Of a stretch of DNA of 64,000 bases, positions 5,763 to 15,436 are shown piece by piece (within the stretch, counting starts at the first letter, position 1; each line of letters opens with the position of its first letter). The stretch lies in NCBI RefSeq assembly GCF_000026545.1, contig NC_011601.1. One strand, 5' to 3'. The notes under the pieces were generated by a model. It worked only from the letters and a program-made list of their open reading frames with translations, made no database searches and was not told the DNA's origin. A program made the position numbers and the translations under genes. The DNA is from Escherichia coli O127:H6 str. E2348/69 (GTDB lineage Bacteria; Pseudomonadota; Gammaproteobacteria; Enterobacterales; Enterobacteriaceae).

Positions 5763-6362
5763 ATGCAAATTGGCTATATTCGTGTGTCAACAAATGACCA
5801 GAACACGGATTTACAACGCAATGCACTGAACTGCGCAGGATGTGAACTGATTTTTGAAGATAAAATCAGCGGAACGAAATCAGCCAGACCGGGATTGAAA
5901 AAACTGCTCAGAACGCTATCAGAAGGAGATACGCTGGTTGTCTGGAAGCTGGACAGACTGGGCAGAAGTATGAAACACCTGATCACGCTTATTGAGGAAT
6001 TGCGGGAAAAAGGTGTTAATTTCCGTAGTCTGACGGACAGCATTGACACATCAACACCCATGGGGCGTTTCTTTTTTCACGTCATGGGGGCTTTAGCCGA
6101 AATGGAACGTGAATTAATTGTAGAGCGTACACTGGCCGGGCTGGCAGCAGCACGCGCACAAGGACGCATTGGCGGACGTCGCCCGAAGTTGACAAAAGAA
6201 CAACACGAGCAAATAGCGAGGCTGATTAAAAACGGTCATGACAGGAAACAACTGGCGATCATTTACGACATCGGCATATCGACGATTTATCGTTATCACC
6301 CTGTAGGCGATATACAGGCTGAAGAAACAACCAGGCAGACTCAGGAAAATAAAAACCGCTAA
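5763..6362 (+). CDS. serine DNA invertase, Gin/Pin/Cin/Hin family
   Basis: N-terminus MQIGYIRVSTNDQNTDLQRNAL and internal VVWKLDRLGRSMKHLI, SLTDSIDTSTPMGRFFFHVMGALAEMERELI match Gin/Hin as recalled; C-terminal HTH region. Confidence 0.9.
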   Translation: MQIGYIRVSTNDQNTDLQRNALNCAGCELIFEDKISGTKSARPGLKKLLRTLSEGDTLVVWKLDRLGRSMKHLITLIEELREKGVNFRSLTDSIDTSTPMGRFFFHVMGALAEMERELIVERTLAGLAAARAQGRIGGRRPKLTKEQHEQIARLIKNGHDRKQLAIIYDIGISTIYRYHPVGDIQAEETTRQTQENKNR

Positions 6363-6384
6363 TCTGACCATTAGCGGTTTTGCG
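6349..6384. terminator. bidirectional hairpin between convergent invertase and gpU genes
   Basis: Inverted repeat accgctaat/attagcggt flanked by A-run on one side and T-rich on other. Confidence 0.45.
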
Positions 6385-6388
6385 TTAA

Positions 6389-6883
6389 TCAAAACAGCCC
6401 TTTAACGGAGCTGGCCGCGCTGTTAAGGGATGATGTGACCTTATCTTTGAAGCCGGACAGCATATCACTGAACGATGAGGATTGCAGGCGCTCCCGCAAA
6501 TCCTCATCACAGCGTTCAAGAGTCAGTGAAAATTCTATCTTTTTCGCCTTACCGTAGCGATCAAACTCGGAACGGGTCGTATTCGTTTCAGTCAGTACAT
6601 ACATGCCGTAAATCTGCCCGACACCATCAATCAGAGGCCAGGGGCGTCCTGTATATGCCTGCGTGGTCAGCAACGAAAGCGACACTTCGCCACCTGTAAT
6701 TTCAGGATAAAGCACGCCGGAAAGCACGATGCGATCATCACCTGCGCCGATATACTGCCAGCTTGCTGAACGGTTAACGCGTTCATTTTTCACATGCCGC
6801 CAGCTTTTGTTTTGCTGTAACTGCTGATGCGGCAATGTGCGCAGCTCAAAAACAAACATGCCGTAGATCATCATCATGGCCAT
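6389..6883 (-). CDS. tail protein, P2 gpU-like
   Basis: 164 aa ORF directly downstream of tape measure gene; size and order match P2 U. Confidence 0.75.
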   Translation of the reverse strand: MAMMMIYGMFVFELRTLPHQQLQQNKSWRHVKNERVNRSASWQYIGAGDDRIVLSGVLYPEITGGEVSLSLLTTQAYTGRPWPLIDGVGQIYGMYVLTETNTTRSEFDRYGKAKKIEFSLTLERCDEDLRERLQSSSFSDMLSGFKDKVTSSLNSAASSVKGLF

Positions 6884-6889
6884 GACTCC

Positions 6890-9733
6890 TCAATCTTTAT
6901 CGTAAAAACTGCCACGTCCGGCACGGTCGCGTCGTTCCAATTCTGCCCTGACCATTTCACCGACCAGTTTCGCCAGTTTGCGGGGATTCTGCGTAACAAC
7001 GTTATGCAGATGAACATGAATTTCACCGCCAAATCCGGAGACAACAGGCTCCCGGTTACGGGAAGTTGCAGGAACTGATGCCACTGGCGATCGTATGGCC
7101 TCCGCCACCGGGCGGGAGCTGGCCGCAACAACAGGGACCAGCGCCGGAGGCAGAGGAGTCGGGACCACGGGTGTGATGTTGATTGCGGAAGCAGGCTTAC
7201 TGACCTGCGCAATCTTCCGCTCCTGCCACTCCCCACGAACAGCAAGTGCGCGGGGCAGATTCTTAAAGACAATATCGCCGGGGCCAATGCGTTTTTTCGT
7301 CTCATCAACCAGCTTACCTGTGTTATCAGCAATTTTGCTGAGTCTGCGTAGCGTACCGGTATTGCTGTCTGTGAGCGGTTTGTTGTCTTTGGGTTTATCA
7401 CCTCCGGTGCCATTGCCATTTTCCACAGGCTTCGGCGGATTGATTTTCGCCAGGTCCCCCTGAAGCAAGGCAACCTTGTCCTGAAGAATGGCCGCACGCT
7501 GTGCGTCTTCGATTTTCTTGCGCGCCCTTTCCGCTTCATCCGGAAGGACGCCAAGTTTTTCAAGTATCCACGCCAGCGTATCCAGTAGCATTTTTGCAGG
7601 CGTCAGAACAAGTTGTAACGCACCGCCAAGAACGTTACCGAATATCTCGCCAGCACTGGTACATTTATCCAGCGTTTCCTTGCTGGACTCCATCGGTGAC
7701 AGCAGCGATTTAAACCAGTTAAACACCTGGCTGATCCCGCTTCCGATTGCGTCAAAAACAGGACCAAACCGTTCAAAGGTTTCGCGCAACGGGGCCAGCC
7801 TTTCCATAATCCCGCTGAACACCCCGGCAAAAAATGCCCTGATGGGATCCCAGTATTTCCAGATAAGAACGGCAGCTCCGGCAAGTGCAGCCACGATAAG
7901 ACCAACCGGACTGAACAGCGCCCCGATAGCGCCTCCCAGTAAAGAAACGGAACCCGTCACCATTCCCCATAGTGCTGGCAGGACCCTGACAGCATTCATT
8001 GATCCGGTCAGGAGAGAAAAACCAAGACGCAGTTTTGCCAGCGGACCAGCAAGCACACCAATAGCCAGCGACAACGAGCCAACCGTTGCAGTCATTGCCA
8101 GCAACGCACCGCCTGCTATCAGTAGCTGGCGCGTCAGTGCCGGATGGGCCTGCGCCAGCGCCGTCACCCTTGATACCACCCGCGTGAGCCACTGCGTGAC
8201 AGAACGCAGCGGACCGTCAATCAGATCTGCAATGCGGATGCGCAACCCTTCCCATGCACTGCCGAGTGATTTCAGATCGCCGTCAAGGTTGTTGGCCATA
8301 ACCTTTGCTGTGCGTTCAGCCTCACCGCGCGCGCCTTCAAGTTCTTTTCTCAGTTTGGGTAAGGAACCGTCACCCGCTGCATCAACGAGCGCCATAAACG
8401 ATGTGAAAGCCTCTTCTCCGGCAATGTCCTTAAAGAACGATACCCGGTCAACTTCCCCGTATTTGCGGGTGGCTTTATAAAGGTCGGCCAGCACATCCTC
8501 CATCGGGCGCATTTTGCCCCCGGCATCCGAGACGGACACGCCCAGCTCTTTCAGAGCTTCTGCCGCCGCCTTTGGCGGTGATGCCAGACGAGCCAGGCTG
8601 GCACGCATTGCCGTCCCGGCATCACTCCCTCTGATGCCCATATTCGCCAGCACGCCAGCCATCGCTGCGGCCTGCTCCAGCGATATTCCCAGCTTACCCG
8701 CCACCGGACCTGCATATTTCATGGTTTCGCCCAGTGCGCGAAGGTCAGTGTTGGTACGGGTAAACGCTGCGGTGAGTGTGTCACCGACCCGGTCCATCTG
8801 GTCAGCAGAAAGGCCGAACTGCGTCAGGATATTTGAGCCAATATCTGCCGTCTCGCCGAGATCCATACCGCCAGCCGTTGCCATGCTCAGCACTCCGGGA
8901 AGCGCAGCCTGAATGGCCTGCGGTGTGAAGCCAGCCATTGCAAGAAATGCCTGCCCACTGGCGGCATCGCCTGCGGTGAACTGCGTTTCAGAGCCAAGTT
9001 TTAACGCCTGCTCACGCAGCGCCTTAAACTGCGGGCTGTTCTGGTCGATTCGCGTCAGCGCCTGAACGCGGGACATCTCTTTGCCGAACCCGATCGCGGG
9101 CTGCAAAAAACGCCCGGCAGCATAGCCGCCCGCCGCTGCCGCACCAATTGCCAGCGCACCACCTGTTTTCAGTTTTCCCGCGGTTTCCTGCGCGCGCGAA
9201 TACCGCTCACGCGCCCGCGTTACACGCGCAAGCGCCTGCCGTTCGCGTTCAAGCTGGTTGTTGTACTGTTCGGTGCGTCTGATGGCCTGCTGGATGGTGT
9301 TATCGCTGCCTGTCAGGGAAATGCCGTGGCGTTTCAGCTCTCCGCCAAGTTCCCGCATTTTCTGAATTTCCCGTGTGCGCGATTCATTCAGGCGTTCAAG
9401 CCGGGTGCTTAACTGCTGCATCAGCTTTTGTTGTTTTTCGCTGAGCACTGTACCCGTGCGTTGTAACTGATTAAGAGCGTTAAGCTGGCGTCGTGCTTTC
9501 AATATGCCAGCATCCGCTTTACTGACAGCGTCACGGGCGCGCTCAAATGAACGCGCCTGACGCTCGAGATTTTTGATCGCCCCCTGCGTTCGCTGGATGG
9601 AGTCACCAAACTGCCCCATCAGGCGGCGGGCGTTTTCGGCAGGCCGGGTCAGCCTGTCAACGGCGCTGAAAGCGACCCGGATATCAAGAGTCTTCATTGT
9701 CTGTATTCCCGCTGCGAAGTGCCGCCCGCTCAC
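6890..9733 (-). CDS. tail tape measure protein, P2 gpT-like (start uncertain: GTG 9733 or ATG 9697)
   Basis: 947 aa ORF, Ala/Gly-rich with hydrophobic segments, follows E/E' as in P2. Confidence 0.8.
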   Translation of the reverse strand: MSGRHFAAGIQTMKTLDIRVAFSAVDRLTRPAENARRLMGQFGDSIQRTQGAIKNLERQARSFERARDAVSKADAGILKARRQLNALNQLQRTGTVLSEKQQKLMQQLSTRLERLNESRTREIQKMRELGGELKRHGISLTGSDNTIQQAIRRTEQYNNQLERERQALARVTRARERYSRAQETAGKLKTGGALAIGAAAAGGYAAGRFLQPAIGFGKEMSRVQALTRIDQNSPQFKALREQALKLGSETQFTAGDAASGQAFLAMAGFTPQAIQAALPGVLSMATAGGMDLGETADIGSNILTQFGLSADQMDRVGDTLTAAFTRTNTDLRALGETMKYAGPVAGKLGISLEQAAAMAGVLANMGIRGSDAGTAMRASLARLASPPKAAAEALKELGVSVSDAGGKMRPMEDVLADLYKATRKYGEVDRVSFFKDIAGEEAFTSFMALVDAAGDGSLPKLRKELEGARGEAERTAKVMANNLDGDLKSLGSAWEGLRIRIADLIDGPLRSVTQWLTRVVSRVTALAQAHPALTRQLLIAGGALLAMTATVGSLSLAIGVLAGPLAKLRLGFSLLTGSMNAVRVLPALWGMVTGSVSLLGGAIGALFSPVGLIVAALAGAAVLIWKYWDPIRAFFAGVFSGIMERLAPLRETFERFGPVFDAIGSGISQVFNWFKSLLSPMESSKETLDKCTSAGEIFGNVLGGALQLVLTPAKMLLDTLAWILEKLGVLPDEAERARKKIEDAQRAAILQDKVALLQGDLAKINPPKPVENGNGTGGDKPKDNKPLTDSNTGTLRRLSKIADNTGKLVDETKKRIGPGDIVFKNLPRALAVRGEWQERKIAQVSKPASAINITPVVPTPLPPALVPVVAASSRPVAEAIRSPVASVPATSRNREPVVSGFGGEIHVHLHNVVTQNPRKLAKLVGEMVRAELERRDRAGRGSFYDKD

Positions 9734-12131: not shown

Positions 12132-13232
12132 ATGACCGATACCACCATGCAATTGCTCAGTCAGGGCACAGACCCCGTGAAAATGCCGGATTTTGATATT
12201 CTCGCGGAGGGTAAAACGCTGTCAGGCGTGGCAGAGCGCCTGATGAGCCTGTCACTGACCGACAACCGGGGATTTGAGGCGGACCAGCTCACCATCACGC
12301 TGGATGATGCGGATGGTCAGTTGCAGCTACCGCCACGGGGCGCGCGCCTGACGGTTCTCATTGGCTGGAAAGGAGAACCGCTGACAGAAAAAGGCACTTA
12401 CATTGTTGATGAAATCGCTCACGAAGGACCGCCGGACAGGCTGACTGTTTCAGCCAGAAGCGCAGATTTTCGGGATGAATTTAACGTTAAACGTGAGGTG
12501 TCCTGGCATGATGTGACCGTTGAGCGCGTGGTATCTGCCATCGCTCATCGGTACGGTCTGAAACCGCAAATCAGCGAAATACTGATGGATATCGAAATCG
12601 ACCACGCCGACCAGACCGAAGAAAGCGACATGTCCTTCCTTACGCGCATGGCGGAAATGCTGGGCGCAATCACCACGGTAAAAAGCGGTAATCTGTTATT
12701 CATCATGCCAGGCGGTCGCGTGAACGCACTGGGCCAGCCGTTGCCATCGTTCGCCATCACACGCAGCAGCGGCGATCGCCATCAGTTCCGCATTGCTGAC
12801 CGCGAGGCGTATACGGGTGTACGCGCCTACTGGCTTGATCTTAATTACGGGAAAAAGAAAAAAGTCAGCGTGAAACGCCGCAAACCGAAAAAAGAGAAAA
12901 GCAGCAGCCGTGAAGGTGACTATATGGAAGGTGCGGAAGGCAACGTGTTTGTGTTACGCAAAACTTATCAGAACGAGCAGGCAGCAAGACGCGCAGCGGC
13001 GGCAAAATGGCAGCAGCTACAACGCGGAGCCGCATCATTTTCCATCACGCTGGCACGTGGACGAGCAGAACTCTACCCCGAAATGCATGGCACGGTAACA
13101 GGATTTAAAAGCGAGATTGATAATCAGGACTGGATCATTGCAAAAGCCGAGCACACCATTGATAACAGTGGCTTTACCACGCAGCTTGAGCTTGAAGCCA
13201 AAATCCCGGAATGGATAGCAGAAACAGAGTAA
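12132..13232 (+). CDS. tail protein, P2 gpD-like
   Basis: About 366 aa from MTDTTMQLL; lysine-rich linker; precedes ogr as in P2. Confidence 0.75.
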   Translation: MTDTTMQLLSQGTDPVKMPDFDILAEGKTLSGVAERLMSLSLTDNRGFEADQLTITLDDADGQLQLPPRGARLTVLIGWKGEPLTEKGTYIVDEIAHEGPPDRLTVSARSADFRDEFNVKREVSWHDVTVERVVSAIAHRYGLKPQISEILMDIEIDHADQTEESDMSFLTRMAEMLGAITTVKSGNLLFIMPGGRVNALGQPLPSFAITRSSGDRHQFRIADREAYTGVRAYWLDLNYGKKKKVSVKRRKPKKEKSSSREGDYMEGAEGNVFVLRKTYQNEQAARRAAAAKWQQLQRGAASFSITLARGRAELYPEMHGTVTGFKSEIDNQDWIIAKAEHTIDNSGFTTQLELEAKIPEWIAETE

Positions 13233-13426
13233 ACAACTTAGATGCATTAGCCCTGACATTTGCTAACGCGCTTACAGCAAGAATCATAACCAATCTGACA
13301 GCCTACCCGGTGTCAAAATCAGAAGAGCCTTACATTAGAATATGTTAATTTGTAGCAAACAAATTTACACACAAATGATTACTGCTGAAATAGCCCCCAT
13401 AAATGCCATGTCAAAGGATCCATGTT

Positions 13427-14092
13427 ATGAATATGCAAATTTTTATCGCACCAGCAGCCACAGTTGCTGCAGTCTGCCTTGCTGCATATTTTGCTTTACG
13501 AAATGAACGTAAAAAGAAAGCACTTGAGATTAGAACAACTCAACTAGATCGAATATCTGAGCTAGTAAACCGAGCATCTACCAATTTGATGCAATATACA
13601 GGTACTCTTGCCTCTATACTGGAAGCGCACGCCAAAGATAATTATCTACCGAACAAAAAATTTGACATTAATGTAATTAGCAAATGGAAAGATTGCCTCG
13701 ATGAGAGTGAGGTCTGGGCGATTGATATACAGCAACTAAGAACATGTCAGCACAGTCTGGAGTTTCATCGTGAAAAAGAATGGGCTGAATGGAAAAAAAT
13801 AATTCCACCATTACTTGATAAAATTAACCAATTTTTTCTCATATCTAAGCCAGGGCAACCTGTTACGTTTATAAATGGCCAAAACAAAACAGCTGATGAA
13901 CTACTTGTTTTCTCAAGATATTTGAGAAAACAAACAGCAGAAATTGAATCAGTACGTCAGCTGTTACTTTCTCAAATGAGAGAGGAATTCATCGAGTTAA
14001 CTAGCTTTGAACCTGTCACAATGTTTAGCTTATTTAAATCAATAAAGAAAAATGTCATGCAATTTTTCTGTATCAGTGCTCTTAAAAATTGA
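13427..14092 (+). CDS. hypothetical membrane-anchored protein (N-terminal TM helix), AT-rich insert between D and ogr
   Basis: 229 aa ORF (13403..14092; likely start 13427 or 13433); hydrophobic N-terminus IFIAPAATVAAVCLAAYFAL then charged helical region; markedly lower GC than flanking phage genes. Confidence 0.55.
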   Translation: MNMQIFIAPAATVAAVCLAAYFALRNERKKKALEIRTTQLDRISELVNRASTNLMQYTGTLASILEAHAKDNYLPNKKFDINVISKWKDCLDESEVWAIDIQQLRTCQHSLEFHREKEWAEWKKIIPPLLDKINQFFLISKPGQPVTFINGQNKTADELLVFSRYLRKQTAEIESVRQLLLSQMREEFIELTSFEPVTMFSLFKSIKKNVMQFFCISALKN

Positions 14093-14241
14093 CGCTCTGT
14101 TGCAAGCAACCCCAGTGTTAAACTGGGGTTATTCTTGCTAAGAGACCTTTCTACGGCATCAGTAAACAAAACGAACTATCAGTTGGAGTCTGAGCAAGTT
14201 CAGCCTAAACTAGCGACAGCACTACGTTAAGGGAGGTCGCT

Positions 14242-14502
14242 ATGTTCCGTTGTCCGCTTTGTGGCGCATCTGCCCGTATCCGCACCAGTCGTCCGGAAAA
14301 TGATTCAAACACCGTGCGGCAAAAGTATTACCAGTGTAACAACCTGGAATGCGGCGTATGCTTCTCAACACTGGAAGCTTTCCATAAATTCACATCGAAA
14401 CACGCCTCCGGCATCCACTCTTCAGAAGGTATCCCGTGGCATGAGCTGCCAGCTTCACACAGGGGAAACAATCAGATGAGCTTGCCTTTACCTCAGAATT
14501 AA
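14242..14502 (+). CDS. ogr: late gene transcriptional activator, Ogr/Delta zinc-finger family
   Basis: N-terminus MFRCPLCGASARIRTSR...YYQCNNLECG with Cys-x2-Cys...Cys-x4-Cys pattern as in P2 Ogr; 86 aa, longer than the ~72 aa recalled for P2. Confidence 0.8.
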   Translation: MFRCPLCGASARIRTSRPENDSNTVRQKYYQCNNLECGVCFSTLEAFHKFTSKHASGIHSSEGIPWHELPASHRGNNQMSLPLPQN

Positions 14503-14562
14503 CAGGCAGAATTGCCGGAGTAACAAAAACGCGATAGATTACGCGCGGGTGCCTTTCGGCTG

Positions 14563-14775
14563 ATGGTCGGAGGGAATACCCGAAGGCCAGATGTGGAAAG
14601 GCCCCGGAAAACATCTCTGTTTAACCGAGGCCCTAACCGCATTACCTTGACAAGTGAAAGGTTAGCGCCTCTCCGGAAAAGGAGCAAGTGCTATGTCGCA
14701 AAAATCGCTTACGGCCATCACGTTCTGCGTGACGGCAATCCTCATCATCTGGATGTTGCACGGTTCGCTGTGTGA
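14563..14775 (+). CDS. mok-like overlapping reading frame of hok-family locus
   Basis: 70 aa ORF in different frame overlapping the hok-like ORF, as mok overlaps hok in plasmid R1. Confidence 0.4.
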   Translation: MVGGNTRRPDVERPRKTSLFNRGPNRITLTSERLAPLRKRSKCYVAKIAYGHHVLRDGNPHHLDVARFAV

Positions 14776-14833
14776 AATACGGATGAGCTTCTGGGGAGCG
14801 GAGTTTGCGGCGTTCTTACAGTGTAAGCAGTAA
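14693..14833 (+). CDS. Hok/Gef-family type I toxin (small membrane peptide)
   Basis: 46 aa: MSQKSLTAITFCVTAILIIWMLHGSLCEIRMSFWGAEFAAFLQCKQ; TM segment followed by SLCEIR and E(V/F)AAF motifs of Hok; good SD (aaaaggag) upstream. Confidence 0.75.
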   Translation: MSQKSLTAITFCVTAILIIWMLHGSLCEIRMSFWGAEFAAFLQCKQ

Positions 14834-14952: not shown

Positions 14953-15099
14953 TTGGTGTCCTCACCGACTTGAAACAGTGATCAGACTATAAGACAAAGC
15001 CCACAATGTAGCGGGCTTACTCCCCTCCCCCCACTAAATGTGGACGCATCGTGGAACGAAGAGATATAAAACATTATAAATCAATTAGTTATTGAAAGA

Positions 15100-15132
15100 A
15101 AAAAGGCCGCAGAGCGGCCTTTTTAGTTAGAT
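15100..15132 (-). terminator. rho-independent terminator of pheST-ihfA operon
   Basis: aaaaaggccgctctgcggccttttttc on minus strand just after ihfA stop. Confidence 0.7.
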
Positions 15133-15136
15133 CAGA

Positions 15137-15436
15137 TTACTCGTCTTTGGGCGAAGCGTTTTCGACCCGGCTTTTTAACTTCTGCCCGGGTCTGAAGGTC
15201 ACCACGCGCCGTGCTGTAATGGGAATATCCTCGCCCGTTTTCGGGTTACGTCCCGGGCGTTGATTCTTATCACGCAGATCGAAGTTACCAAAACCAGAGA
15301 GTTTCACCTGTTCGCCGTTTTCCAGAGCGCGACGGATCTCTTCGAAAAACAGTTCAACCAGTTCTTTGGCATCCCGCTTGCTAAGCCCAAGCTTATCAAA
15401 CAGATATTCTGACATTTCAGCTTTTGTAAGCGCCAT
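15137..15436 (-). CDS. ihfA: integration host factor alpha subunit
   Basis: 99 aa [33 protein letters not shown]... matches IHF-alpha. Confidence 0.95.

Follow-up and report, generated by a model that had tools for sequence, protein, structure and literature searches.

A likely moron cassette at the D–ogr junction of a P2-like prophage in Escherichia coli E2348/69 carries a gene of the anti-phage DS-43 family

We analyzed a 64,000-nt stretch of DNA (hereafter, the window) from Escherichia coli O127:H6 str. E2348/69, an enteropathogenic E. coli (EPEC) strain, and in particular a 1009-bp insert at positions 13233–14241, which lies between the genes gpD and ogr of a P2-like prophage. The insert is probably a moron cassette, and its gene an allele of DS-43, which has been shown by experiment to defend against phages as a stand-alone gene. 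The evidence comes from the near-identity of the two proteins, from the structure of the insert and of the other cargos found at the same junction, and from the distribution of the gene family over mobile elements.

The insert gene and its near-identity to DS-43

The protein encoded by the insert is identical to WP_001057122.1 at 219 of 221 positions, with no gaps in the alignment (BLASTP, E=5e-169); the two differences of the E2348/69 protein are I100R and N133D. WP_001057122.1 is the protein with the working id D668, published as DS-43 in the DefensePredictor study (DeWeirdt et al., Science 2026; PMC13092281). In that study, DS-43, the sole gene of a transcription unit taken from a natural E. 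coli isolate, was cloned in E. coli MG1655 and challenged with 24 phages, protection being counted if the efficiency of plating dropped at least ten-fold or the plaques became smaller. Table S6 of the same paper lists D668 as defensive (TRUE) in the category “Structural defense homolog” with a log-odds of 4.94. The log10 titer drops given for it in Table S7 are 6.34 for Bas19, 5.11 for SECphi18, 5.0 for both Bas1 and Bas3, 4.78 for Bas9, and 0.52, with small plaques, for Bas11. DS-43 is absent from the main-text discussion, and the paper contains no mechanism or genomic-context analysis for it (PMC13092281).

The initial annotation of the window, made from the sequence alone, had proposed an undescribed anti-phage or host-modulating function for the insert gene. 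The anti-phage part is supported by the published experiment on the 219/221 identical DS-43, in which the titers of five siphoviruses were reduced by 10^4.8–10^6.3. The function is not undescribed, since the 99% identical DS-43 was published in 2026; hence the anti-phage role of the gene is already known.

The sole long open reading frame (ORF) of the insert lies on the plus strand and ends at 14092, with possible starts at 13403 and 13427. The latter is likely to be the true start, because a Shine–Dalgarno sequence AAGGA, found by inspection at 13414–13418 on the plus strand, lies 8 nt upstream of this ATG, RefSeq uses the same start, and the homologs align from there. So delimited by the ORF list, RefSeq, the homolog alignment, and the AlphaFold2 model, the DS-43 family gene occupies 13427–14092 on the plus strand and encodes 221 amino acids (WP_001057121.1, a hypothetical protein in RefSeq), in agreement with the single ORF of about 221–229 codons described initially. 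The ratio of nonsynonymous to synonymous substitution rates (dN/dS) is 0.25–0.33 in comparisons with the 86% and 74% identical homologs, and therefore this is a real protein-coding gene under purifying selection.

Downstream of the gene, a terminator scan identified an intrinsic-terminator-like hairpin (14108–14130; 9-bp stem with five G-C pairs) followed by a T-rich tail, the whole spanning 14108–14138 on the plus strand. Upstream, a standard promoter scan found nothing, and a lenient scan found a −10-like TAGAAT at 13336–13341. This hexamer overlaps an invariant 16-nt block, GAATATGTTAATTTGT, which in our alignment is identical upstream of the 74% identical homolog from Kluyvera, residing in a different type of prophage. 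As the block has been kept while the surrounding sequence diverged (82% mean column identity in the three-sequence alignment), the comparison suggests that the gene has its own promoter, the candidate being at 13336–13353 on the plus strand. The Rfam scan yielded no match inside the insert.

The guanine-cytosine (GC) content of the insert is 0.34–0.40 in 300-bp windows, compared to 0.50–0.58 in the flanks, or 0.38 for the entire insert vs. ∼0.53; the initial description of about 1 kb of lower-GC DNA between D and ogr is thus accurate. The cassette (13233–14241, plus strand) is delimited both by its GC content and by its absence or replacement in related loci. It is anchored on the left by gpD (late control D/tail protein; 12132–13232) and on the right by ogr (Ogr/Delta zinc-finger late activator; 14242–14502), both being present on the plus strand in the ORF list and in RefSeq, where they are labeled “phage late control D family protein” and “Ogr/Delta-like zinc finger protein,” respectively. 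Atypical GC content, a terminator-like hairpin 3′ of the gene, and a conserved upstream block with a candidate promoter are all features of a moron.

The insert is 100% identical to the E2348/69 chromosome. Of 5426 complete E. coli genomes, 57 contain it, and all copies are chromosomal. In strains AR_0128 and AR_0118, the match to the insert is broken into two parts, and an IS1A transposase gene is annotated beneath it, which suggests an IS1 insertion into the cassette. Among deposited phages, the gene is found only in Escherichia phage 520873 (Xuanwuvirus), with 94% identity at the DNA level. This copy appears to be disrupted, as the annotated coding sequence is just 399 bp and the tblastn coverage is 71% of the protein.

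The D–ogr junction and the borders of its cargos

To survey the junction, we considered 80 viral contigs with gpD at least 98% identical to that of the window, a sample biased towards close relatives of the E2348/69 prophage; 73 of them hold both D and ogr. In 36 of these 73 loci the junction is empty, with the two genes 40–42 bp apart, in line with the adjacency of D and ogr that the initial annotation gave for P2-like phages. Seven loci carry the 1009-bp insert, and the remaining 30 carry 19 other cargos; one more locus, the eighth with the gene, stops before ogr. Presence in seven of these 73 loci does not fit a structural gene conserved in most P2-like phages.

The 19 other cargos are 1.2–3.8 kb long, have a GC content of 0.32–0.43, and lie in either orientation. 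PADLOC identified Thoeris type I (ThsA, ThsB), Shedu SduA, PifA-like, bSEFIR, and PDC-S06 genes among them, and NCBIfam a His-Xaa-Ser radical-SAM system (HxsABC), a ParA-like ATPase, and an alpha/beta hydrolase. About a dozen have no recognizable family. The D–ogr junction is a true cargo hotspot with at least 20 alternative low-GC inserts. Being one of these, with a hairpin 3′ of its gene and an upstream block shared with a homolog from another prophage, the insert fits the moron status proposed for it initially.

Defense hotspots described in P2-like phages include old/tin, between A and Q, and Z/fun (Rousset, 2022, PMC9122126; Vassallo, 2022; de Sousa, 2026). Like these, the D–ogr junction is a small locus between conserved phage genes, with fast turnover of cargos, many known defense systems, and low GC content. 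The junction is not named in the papers on P2-like hotspots that we consulted, which name A–Q, G–FI, and some minor sites. Possibly it coincides in part with what iLund4u describes as a “third hotspot between a tail protein and CI” or with the class “within the late genes” of de Sousa et al. D–ogr is a variable site of P2-like phages that has so far attracted little notice.

The borders of the cargos become visible when empty junctions are compared with occupied ones. Empty sites read TGA-GCAACTTAGAATAGCGGCAGC...ATG, whereas in occupied sites CAACTTAGA is found at both cargo ends. The left copy of this 9-bp direct repeat, present as a single copy in empty sites, is at 13234–13242 on the plus strand; the right copy is degenerate and lies at ∼14203–14211, its start being overlapped by the right border. 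Inside the repeat, unrelated cargos have a common left border of ∼75 nt and a common right border of ∼45 nt. In the window, the conserved left border is at 13241–13315 on the plus strand (matched at E=1.2e-10 by an nhmmer profile of 15 other cargos, all unrelated), and the conserved right border at 14167–14208 on the same strand (profile from 16 other cargos, E=1.7e-5, and junction alignments). A possible ogr promoter, comprised of a −35 TTGGAG at 14183–14188, a 17-nt spacer, and a −10 TAAACT at 14206–14211, starts within the right border, which probably also supplies the promoter of ogr.

A BLAST search with a left border retrieved GenBank record AJ512685, the Z region of phage P2-EC67, where the matching sequence is annotated as “left inverted repeat” and flanks a “putative lysogenic conversion protein.” The profiles run against this record were earlier versions (for the left border, from 16 cassettes) that included the cassette of locus L013, identical to the window (numbers with L are our own locus labels). 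The left-border profile matched the left inverted repeat at E=7.5e-10; in reverse, it also matched the right inverted repeat (E=0.019). For the right-border profile, the match had an E-value of 9e-4. The border matches in AJ512685 are at 3–115 and 1255–1345. The left border is also found upstream of the 74% identical Kluyvera homolog in a lambdoid prophage (E=8.7e-13; L093, 5813–5888).

Judging by these border sequences, we conclude that D–ogr cargos and Z/fun morons are bordered cassettes of one kind. As in AJ512685, a low-GC single gene lies between conserved late genes and is framed by matching border repeats; the differences are the site, D–ogr and not G–FI, and the fact that the ends of D–ogr cassettes are weakly inverted. 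“Lysogenic conversion” morons flanked by inverted repeats in the Z/fun region of P2 were reportedly the subject of a study by Nilsson et al. (2004, Mol Biol Evol 21:1).

When the two ends of each D–ogr cassette are compared, one resembles the inverse of the other only weakly (mean z of 0.44), with just L069, L026, and L081 standing out. A transposon-like arrangement, in which terminal inverted repeats would be accompanied by a target duplication of 9 bp, is thus not supported. A reversed match to the left border was seen in one cassette type (L081, L084, L087) and in the Z-region record. Since the ends of single cassettes are not significantly inverted, we describe the cassettes as having conserved borders and a direct repeat, and not as a proven transposon. 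Nor is there support for a conserved RNA fold of the left border, as RNAalifold predicts no pairs. Inspection of the borders by eye gave no convincing match to dif- or cer-like Xer sites, sigma-54 motifs, or Ogr-type late-promoter motifs.

A 45-codon ORF at 13211–13348 on the plus strand begins within the 3′ end of D and crosses the left border. Its frame shows codon-like conservation across cassettes (NLDVLTQT.AGTLT...) and contains in-frame stops in many copies. Because of these stops, a functional small ORF spanning the end of D and the left border is unsupported; it may be a remnant of an older coding sequence.

Family distribution, protein architecture and possible mechanisms

The family is small. 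An exhaustive phmmer search against 1.84 billion representative proteins found 24 relatives, and a profile search of 5.8 billion clusters found 34, none of them with a Pfam domain. Wherever the source names an organism, the host belongs to Enterobacterales, including plant-associated Pantoea and Erwinia. The genomic contexts are diverse. An 86% identical allele also occupies the D–ogr junction, in P2-like prophages at other chromosomal sites. The 74% identical Kluyvera allele lies in a lambdoid prophage beside a colicin-like gene, in the orientation opposite to Q, and Yersinia homologs lie in lambdoid prophages between the antiterminator gene Q and the lysis genes (the Q–lysis moron site). Homologs from Salmonella and other hosts were found within integrative and conjugative elements (ICEs). 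Others are located beside an integrase gene and PD-Lambda-1/SNIPE, ∼0.8 kb from Gabija (GajA/GajB), or beside an nSTAND NTPase gene. Overall, the known defense genes adjacent to homologs or a few genes away are PD-Lambda-1/SNIPE, Gabija, AbiD, a Ppl-like gene, and PDC-S67. No cas genes were seen in any of the homolog contexts examined.

Eight copies are carried by plasmids, both F-like and other, and six of these were examined. In four of the six, a small tyrosine recombinase gene adjoins the homolog, and in four of the six a gene for a replication initiator is nearby (L101, L102, L104, L105). The plasmid loci of the homolog also contain AbiD, a Ppl-like gene, or the combination of pifC and a gene for a P-loop NTPase. 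The recombinase, of ∼245 amino acids, is encoded tail-to-tail with the homolog, the two genes overlapping in L100 (pair at 5932–7343) and L101 (1355–2766) and being 9 nt apart in L102 (6121–7341) and L104 (3932–5341). L105 has no recombinase listed; its pifC and P-loop NTPase genes are ∼1.1 kb downstream of the homolog. We note the adjacency to the recombinase as an observation, a functional link between the two genes being unsupported.

On Pantoea plasmids, a gene encoding ∼200 amino acids is situated 5′ of the homolog, either overlapping it (L100, 5310–6612) or 10 nt away (L103, 3325–4612), and in both cases matches the PADLOC candidate PDC-S67. On a Pantoea-type contig (L005, 4857–6298), the upstream gene encodes a DUF6710 protein unrelated to the PDC-S67-like one. 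We therefore rejected a conserved partner gene: the neighbors vary (DUF6710, PDC-S67-like, or none), and the two upstream partners are mutually unrelated. DS-43 belongs to a small family restricted to Enterobacterales, whose members move as single-gene cargo among prophages (P2-like and lambdoid), ICEs, and F-like plasmids.

The protein has a hydrophobic N-terminal segment, IFIAPAATVAAVCLAAYFA, with a Kyte–Doolittle score of 2.11 over 19 residues (family range 1.3–2.7). In all 18 family members examined, this segment is the most hydrophobic stretch of the protein. Residues 4–24 are a probable transmembrane helix, as proposed initially, and the remainder is a helical bundle; for DS-43, a transmembrane segment at 1–23 and a coiled coil at 158–184 are given in Table S8 (PMC13092281). 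The AlphaFold2 model, based on an alignment of 18 sequences, has a mean predicted local distance difference test score (pLDDT) of 87 and a predicted template modeling score (pTM) of 0.72. It contains a continuous helix at 4–71, followed by helices at 81–93, 101–114, 116–136, 156–192, and 199–219, so that the helix-rich domain of the initial annotation is recovered. The hydrophobic N-terminus is directly followed by RNERKKK, and no basic residue precedes it; by the positive-inside rule, the N-terminus would be outside, and most of the protein would face the cytoplasm. Most likely, therefore, DS-43 is a helical bundle of ∼195 residues facing the cytoplasm and tethered to the inner membrane by a short N-terminal helix. 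The transmembrane and juxtamembrane region is the best conserved (mean 0.63–0.66 vs. 0.30–0.45 elsewhere), and two residues, H114 (codon at 13766–13768) and W122 (13790–13792), are invariant and lie within the motif FH(R)xxEW.

Consistent with the initial failure to place the protein in a known family, searches of Pfam, PHROGs, PADLOC, and NCBIfam with the protein gave nothing significant, and the 18 aligned members have no significant match in Pfam. The only PADLOC 2.0 match, to REase_II (E=0.023), covers residues 16–48 in the membrane-helix/juxtamembrane region and is spurious. Sequence profile searches of the PDB with E up to 10 gave only chance helical matches. From AFDB50, Foldseek retrieved only family members, and from BFVD nothing. 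Hence, the profile and structure searches yielded no homology to phage structural proteins.

Our best guess on the mechanism, albeit a tentative one, is a membrane pore or another depolarizing effector resembling Csx28, an antiviral accessory protein of type VI-B2 CRISPR systems. Csx28, a protein of 177 amino acids, consists of one transmembrane helix at the N-terminus and a C-terminal four-helix bundle in the cytoplasm, and forms an octameric pore depolarizing the membrane after Cas13b activation (10.1101/2021.11.02.466367). By analogy, DS-43 would assemble into a membrane oligomer, as Csx28 does; once infection is sensed, the oligomer would open or perturb the membrane, and the cell would depolarize, so that the infection aborts or stalls. 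As there is no Cas13b partner, the protein would have to detect the phage on its own. Its functional surfaces would be sought first in the conserved transmembrane/juxtamembrane segment and the invariant FH(R)xxEW motif.

The likeness consists in the predicted architecture, as DS-43 also has an N-terminal transmembrane helix and a predicted cytoplasmic four-helix bundle, the arrangement typical of Csx28 and DUF4760 proteins. In addition, a UniRef entry from E. coli at least 90% identical to the insert protein is named “DUF4760 domain-containing protein,” a label that the published tables, which give 8GI1 for Csx28, also attach to one Csx28-family cluster (PMC13092281). On the other hand, DS-43 is ∼45 residues longer than Csx28, lacks the Rx4-6H motif, having the invariant H114 and W122 instead, and has no Cas13b partner, being encoded by a single gene between D and ogr.

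Several further observations weigh against this interpretation. Csx28 is the best HHpred defense match of DS-43 in the published analysis, but a weak one, with 55.7% probability over 17% of the query (PMC13092281). In Pfam searches, the protein has no DUF4760 match at E≤10, and the scans of 18 family members list none at E≤0.1. An hhalign comparison with the Csx28-like DS-13A aligns only 32 transmembrane residues at a probability below 1%, and the matches of the PDB sequence profile search do not include 8GI1. The Foldseek match to a DUF4760 protein has an E-value of just 0.41 and a template modeling score (TM-score) of 0.42. The four-helix bundle is a very common fold. The hydrophobic segment falls below the usual Kyte–Doolittle threshold of 1.6 in about half of the homologs. 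Moreover, the published assay was performed on a plasmid clone in K-12 of an allele differing at two residues, and not on the E2348/69 prophage. Membership in the Csx28 family is not demonstrable, the hints being the DUF4760 label in UniRef and the category assigned by the authors. The full combination, in which DS-43 is a self-contained, CRISPR-free Csx28-like pore sensing siphoviruses directly at the inner membrane, and D–ogr and Z/fun harbor common bordered cassettes that have moved site-specifically into other hotspots and phage types, appears rather unlikely.

Nearly as likely as an infection-triggered depolarizing oligomer would be a non-abortive block of entry (superinfection exclusion), where siphovirus DNA is stopped at the inner membrane, or a step dependent on TonB or the proton motive force is disturbed, and the cell survives. 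The restricted phages (Bas1, Bas3, Bas9, Bas11, SECphi18, and Bas19) are all siphoviruses, namely T1-like Drexlerviridae and a related siphovirus. Titer drops of 10^5–10^6 without plaques are typical of an early block, the high conservation of the transmembrane/juxtamembrane segment would suit an interaction inside the membrane, and one homolog adjoins SNIPE/PD-Lambda-1, which acts at genome entry. However, the predicted topology leaves just 3–8 residues outside, with nearly all of the protein in the cytoplasm, and nothing resembling Imm, SieA, Cor, Llp, or proteins of the gp15 type was found in PHROGs, Pfam, or BFVD.

The protection could also be indirect, if plasmid-borne expression disturbs the cell envelope or the amount of receptor while the natural role is different, e.g., host fitness or virulence conversion. 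There is a precedent in neaT, a moron of another P2-like prophage and a fitness factor (PMC3573123); E2348/69 is an EPEC pathogen, and the assay used plasmid clones, for which Table S6 states pBAD = TRUE while the main text speaks of native promoter regions (PMC13092281). Still, we regard this explanation as improbable given that strong protection is seen specifically against some of the phages in the 24-phage panel, that homologs lie beside known defense genes in many unrelated elements and hosts, and that the alternative D–ogr cargos are defense systems. Hardly to be expected is a late or lysis-associated accessory function, such as lysis timing, exerted via read-through of the late operon, although the terminator scan found no terminator between D and the gene, and the Yersinia lambdoid homolog lies between Q and the lysis genes. 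The gene also resides on plasmids and ICEs, is opposite to Q in the Kluyvera prophage, and is absent from most P2-like relatives, while DS-43 protects a non-lysogen from other phages. The lysis genes of the E2348/69 prophage are ∼15 kb from the insert gene, and no holin similarity was found in PHROGs, Pfam, or BFVD.

Neighboring features and significance

According to the RefSeq annotation, the prophage adjoins ihfA and pheT. Directly after ogr, at 14547–14833 on the plus strand, there is a hok/sok-type toxin–antitoxin module, with a Hok/Gef ORF at 14693–14833 and an Rfam match to sok of 48.4 bits (E=3.4e-9), which is under the gathering score of 59. As the module is also found 3′ of ogr in prophages at other chromosomal sites (L095–L097), it is carried by the phage. 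A match to the enterobacterial small RNA STnc540 (15051–15195, minus strand; 41.3 bits with a gathering score of 38) is situated between the prophage end and ihfA. From the RefSeq annotation only, a recombinase-family (invertase-like) gene at ∼5763–6362 lies by duplicated or partial tail-fiber genes, and the FI-to-U tail operon is on the strand opposite to D, unlike in P2. Outside the prophage, past thrS, RefSeq annotates a frameshifted and truncated pseudogene of a type III effector of the ShET2/EspL2 family (∼22978–23758).

While the defense activity of DS-43 has been published, its genomic context is new, placing the gene in a D–ogr hotspot together with Thoeris, Shedu, and many uncharacterized cargos. 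The cassette borders common to D–ogr cargos and Z/fun morons are also new, as is the description of DS-43 as a narrow, mobile family. The D–ogr site is a further place to mine for defense genes, and its cargos without a recognizable family are candidates for such genes. The conserved membrane-proximal segment and the invariant His and Trp residues provide new targets for mutagenesis. How a protein of 221 residues can both sense and stop siphovirus infection is a testable question.

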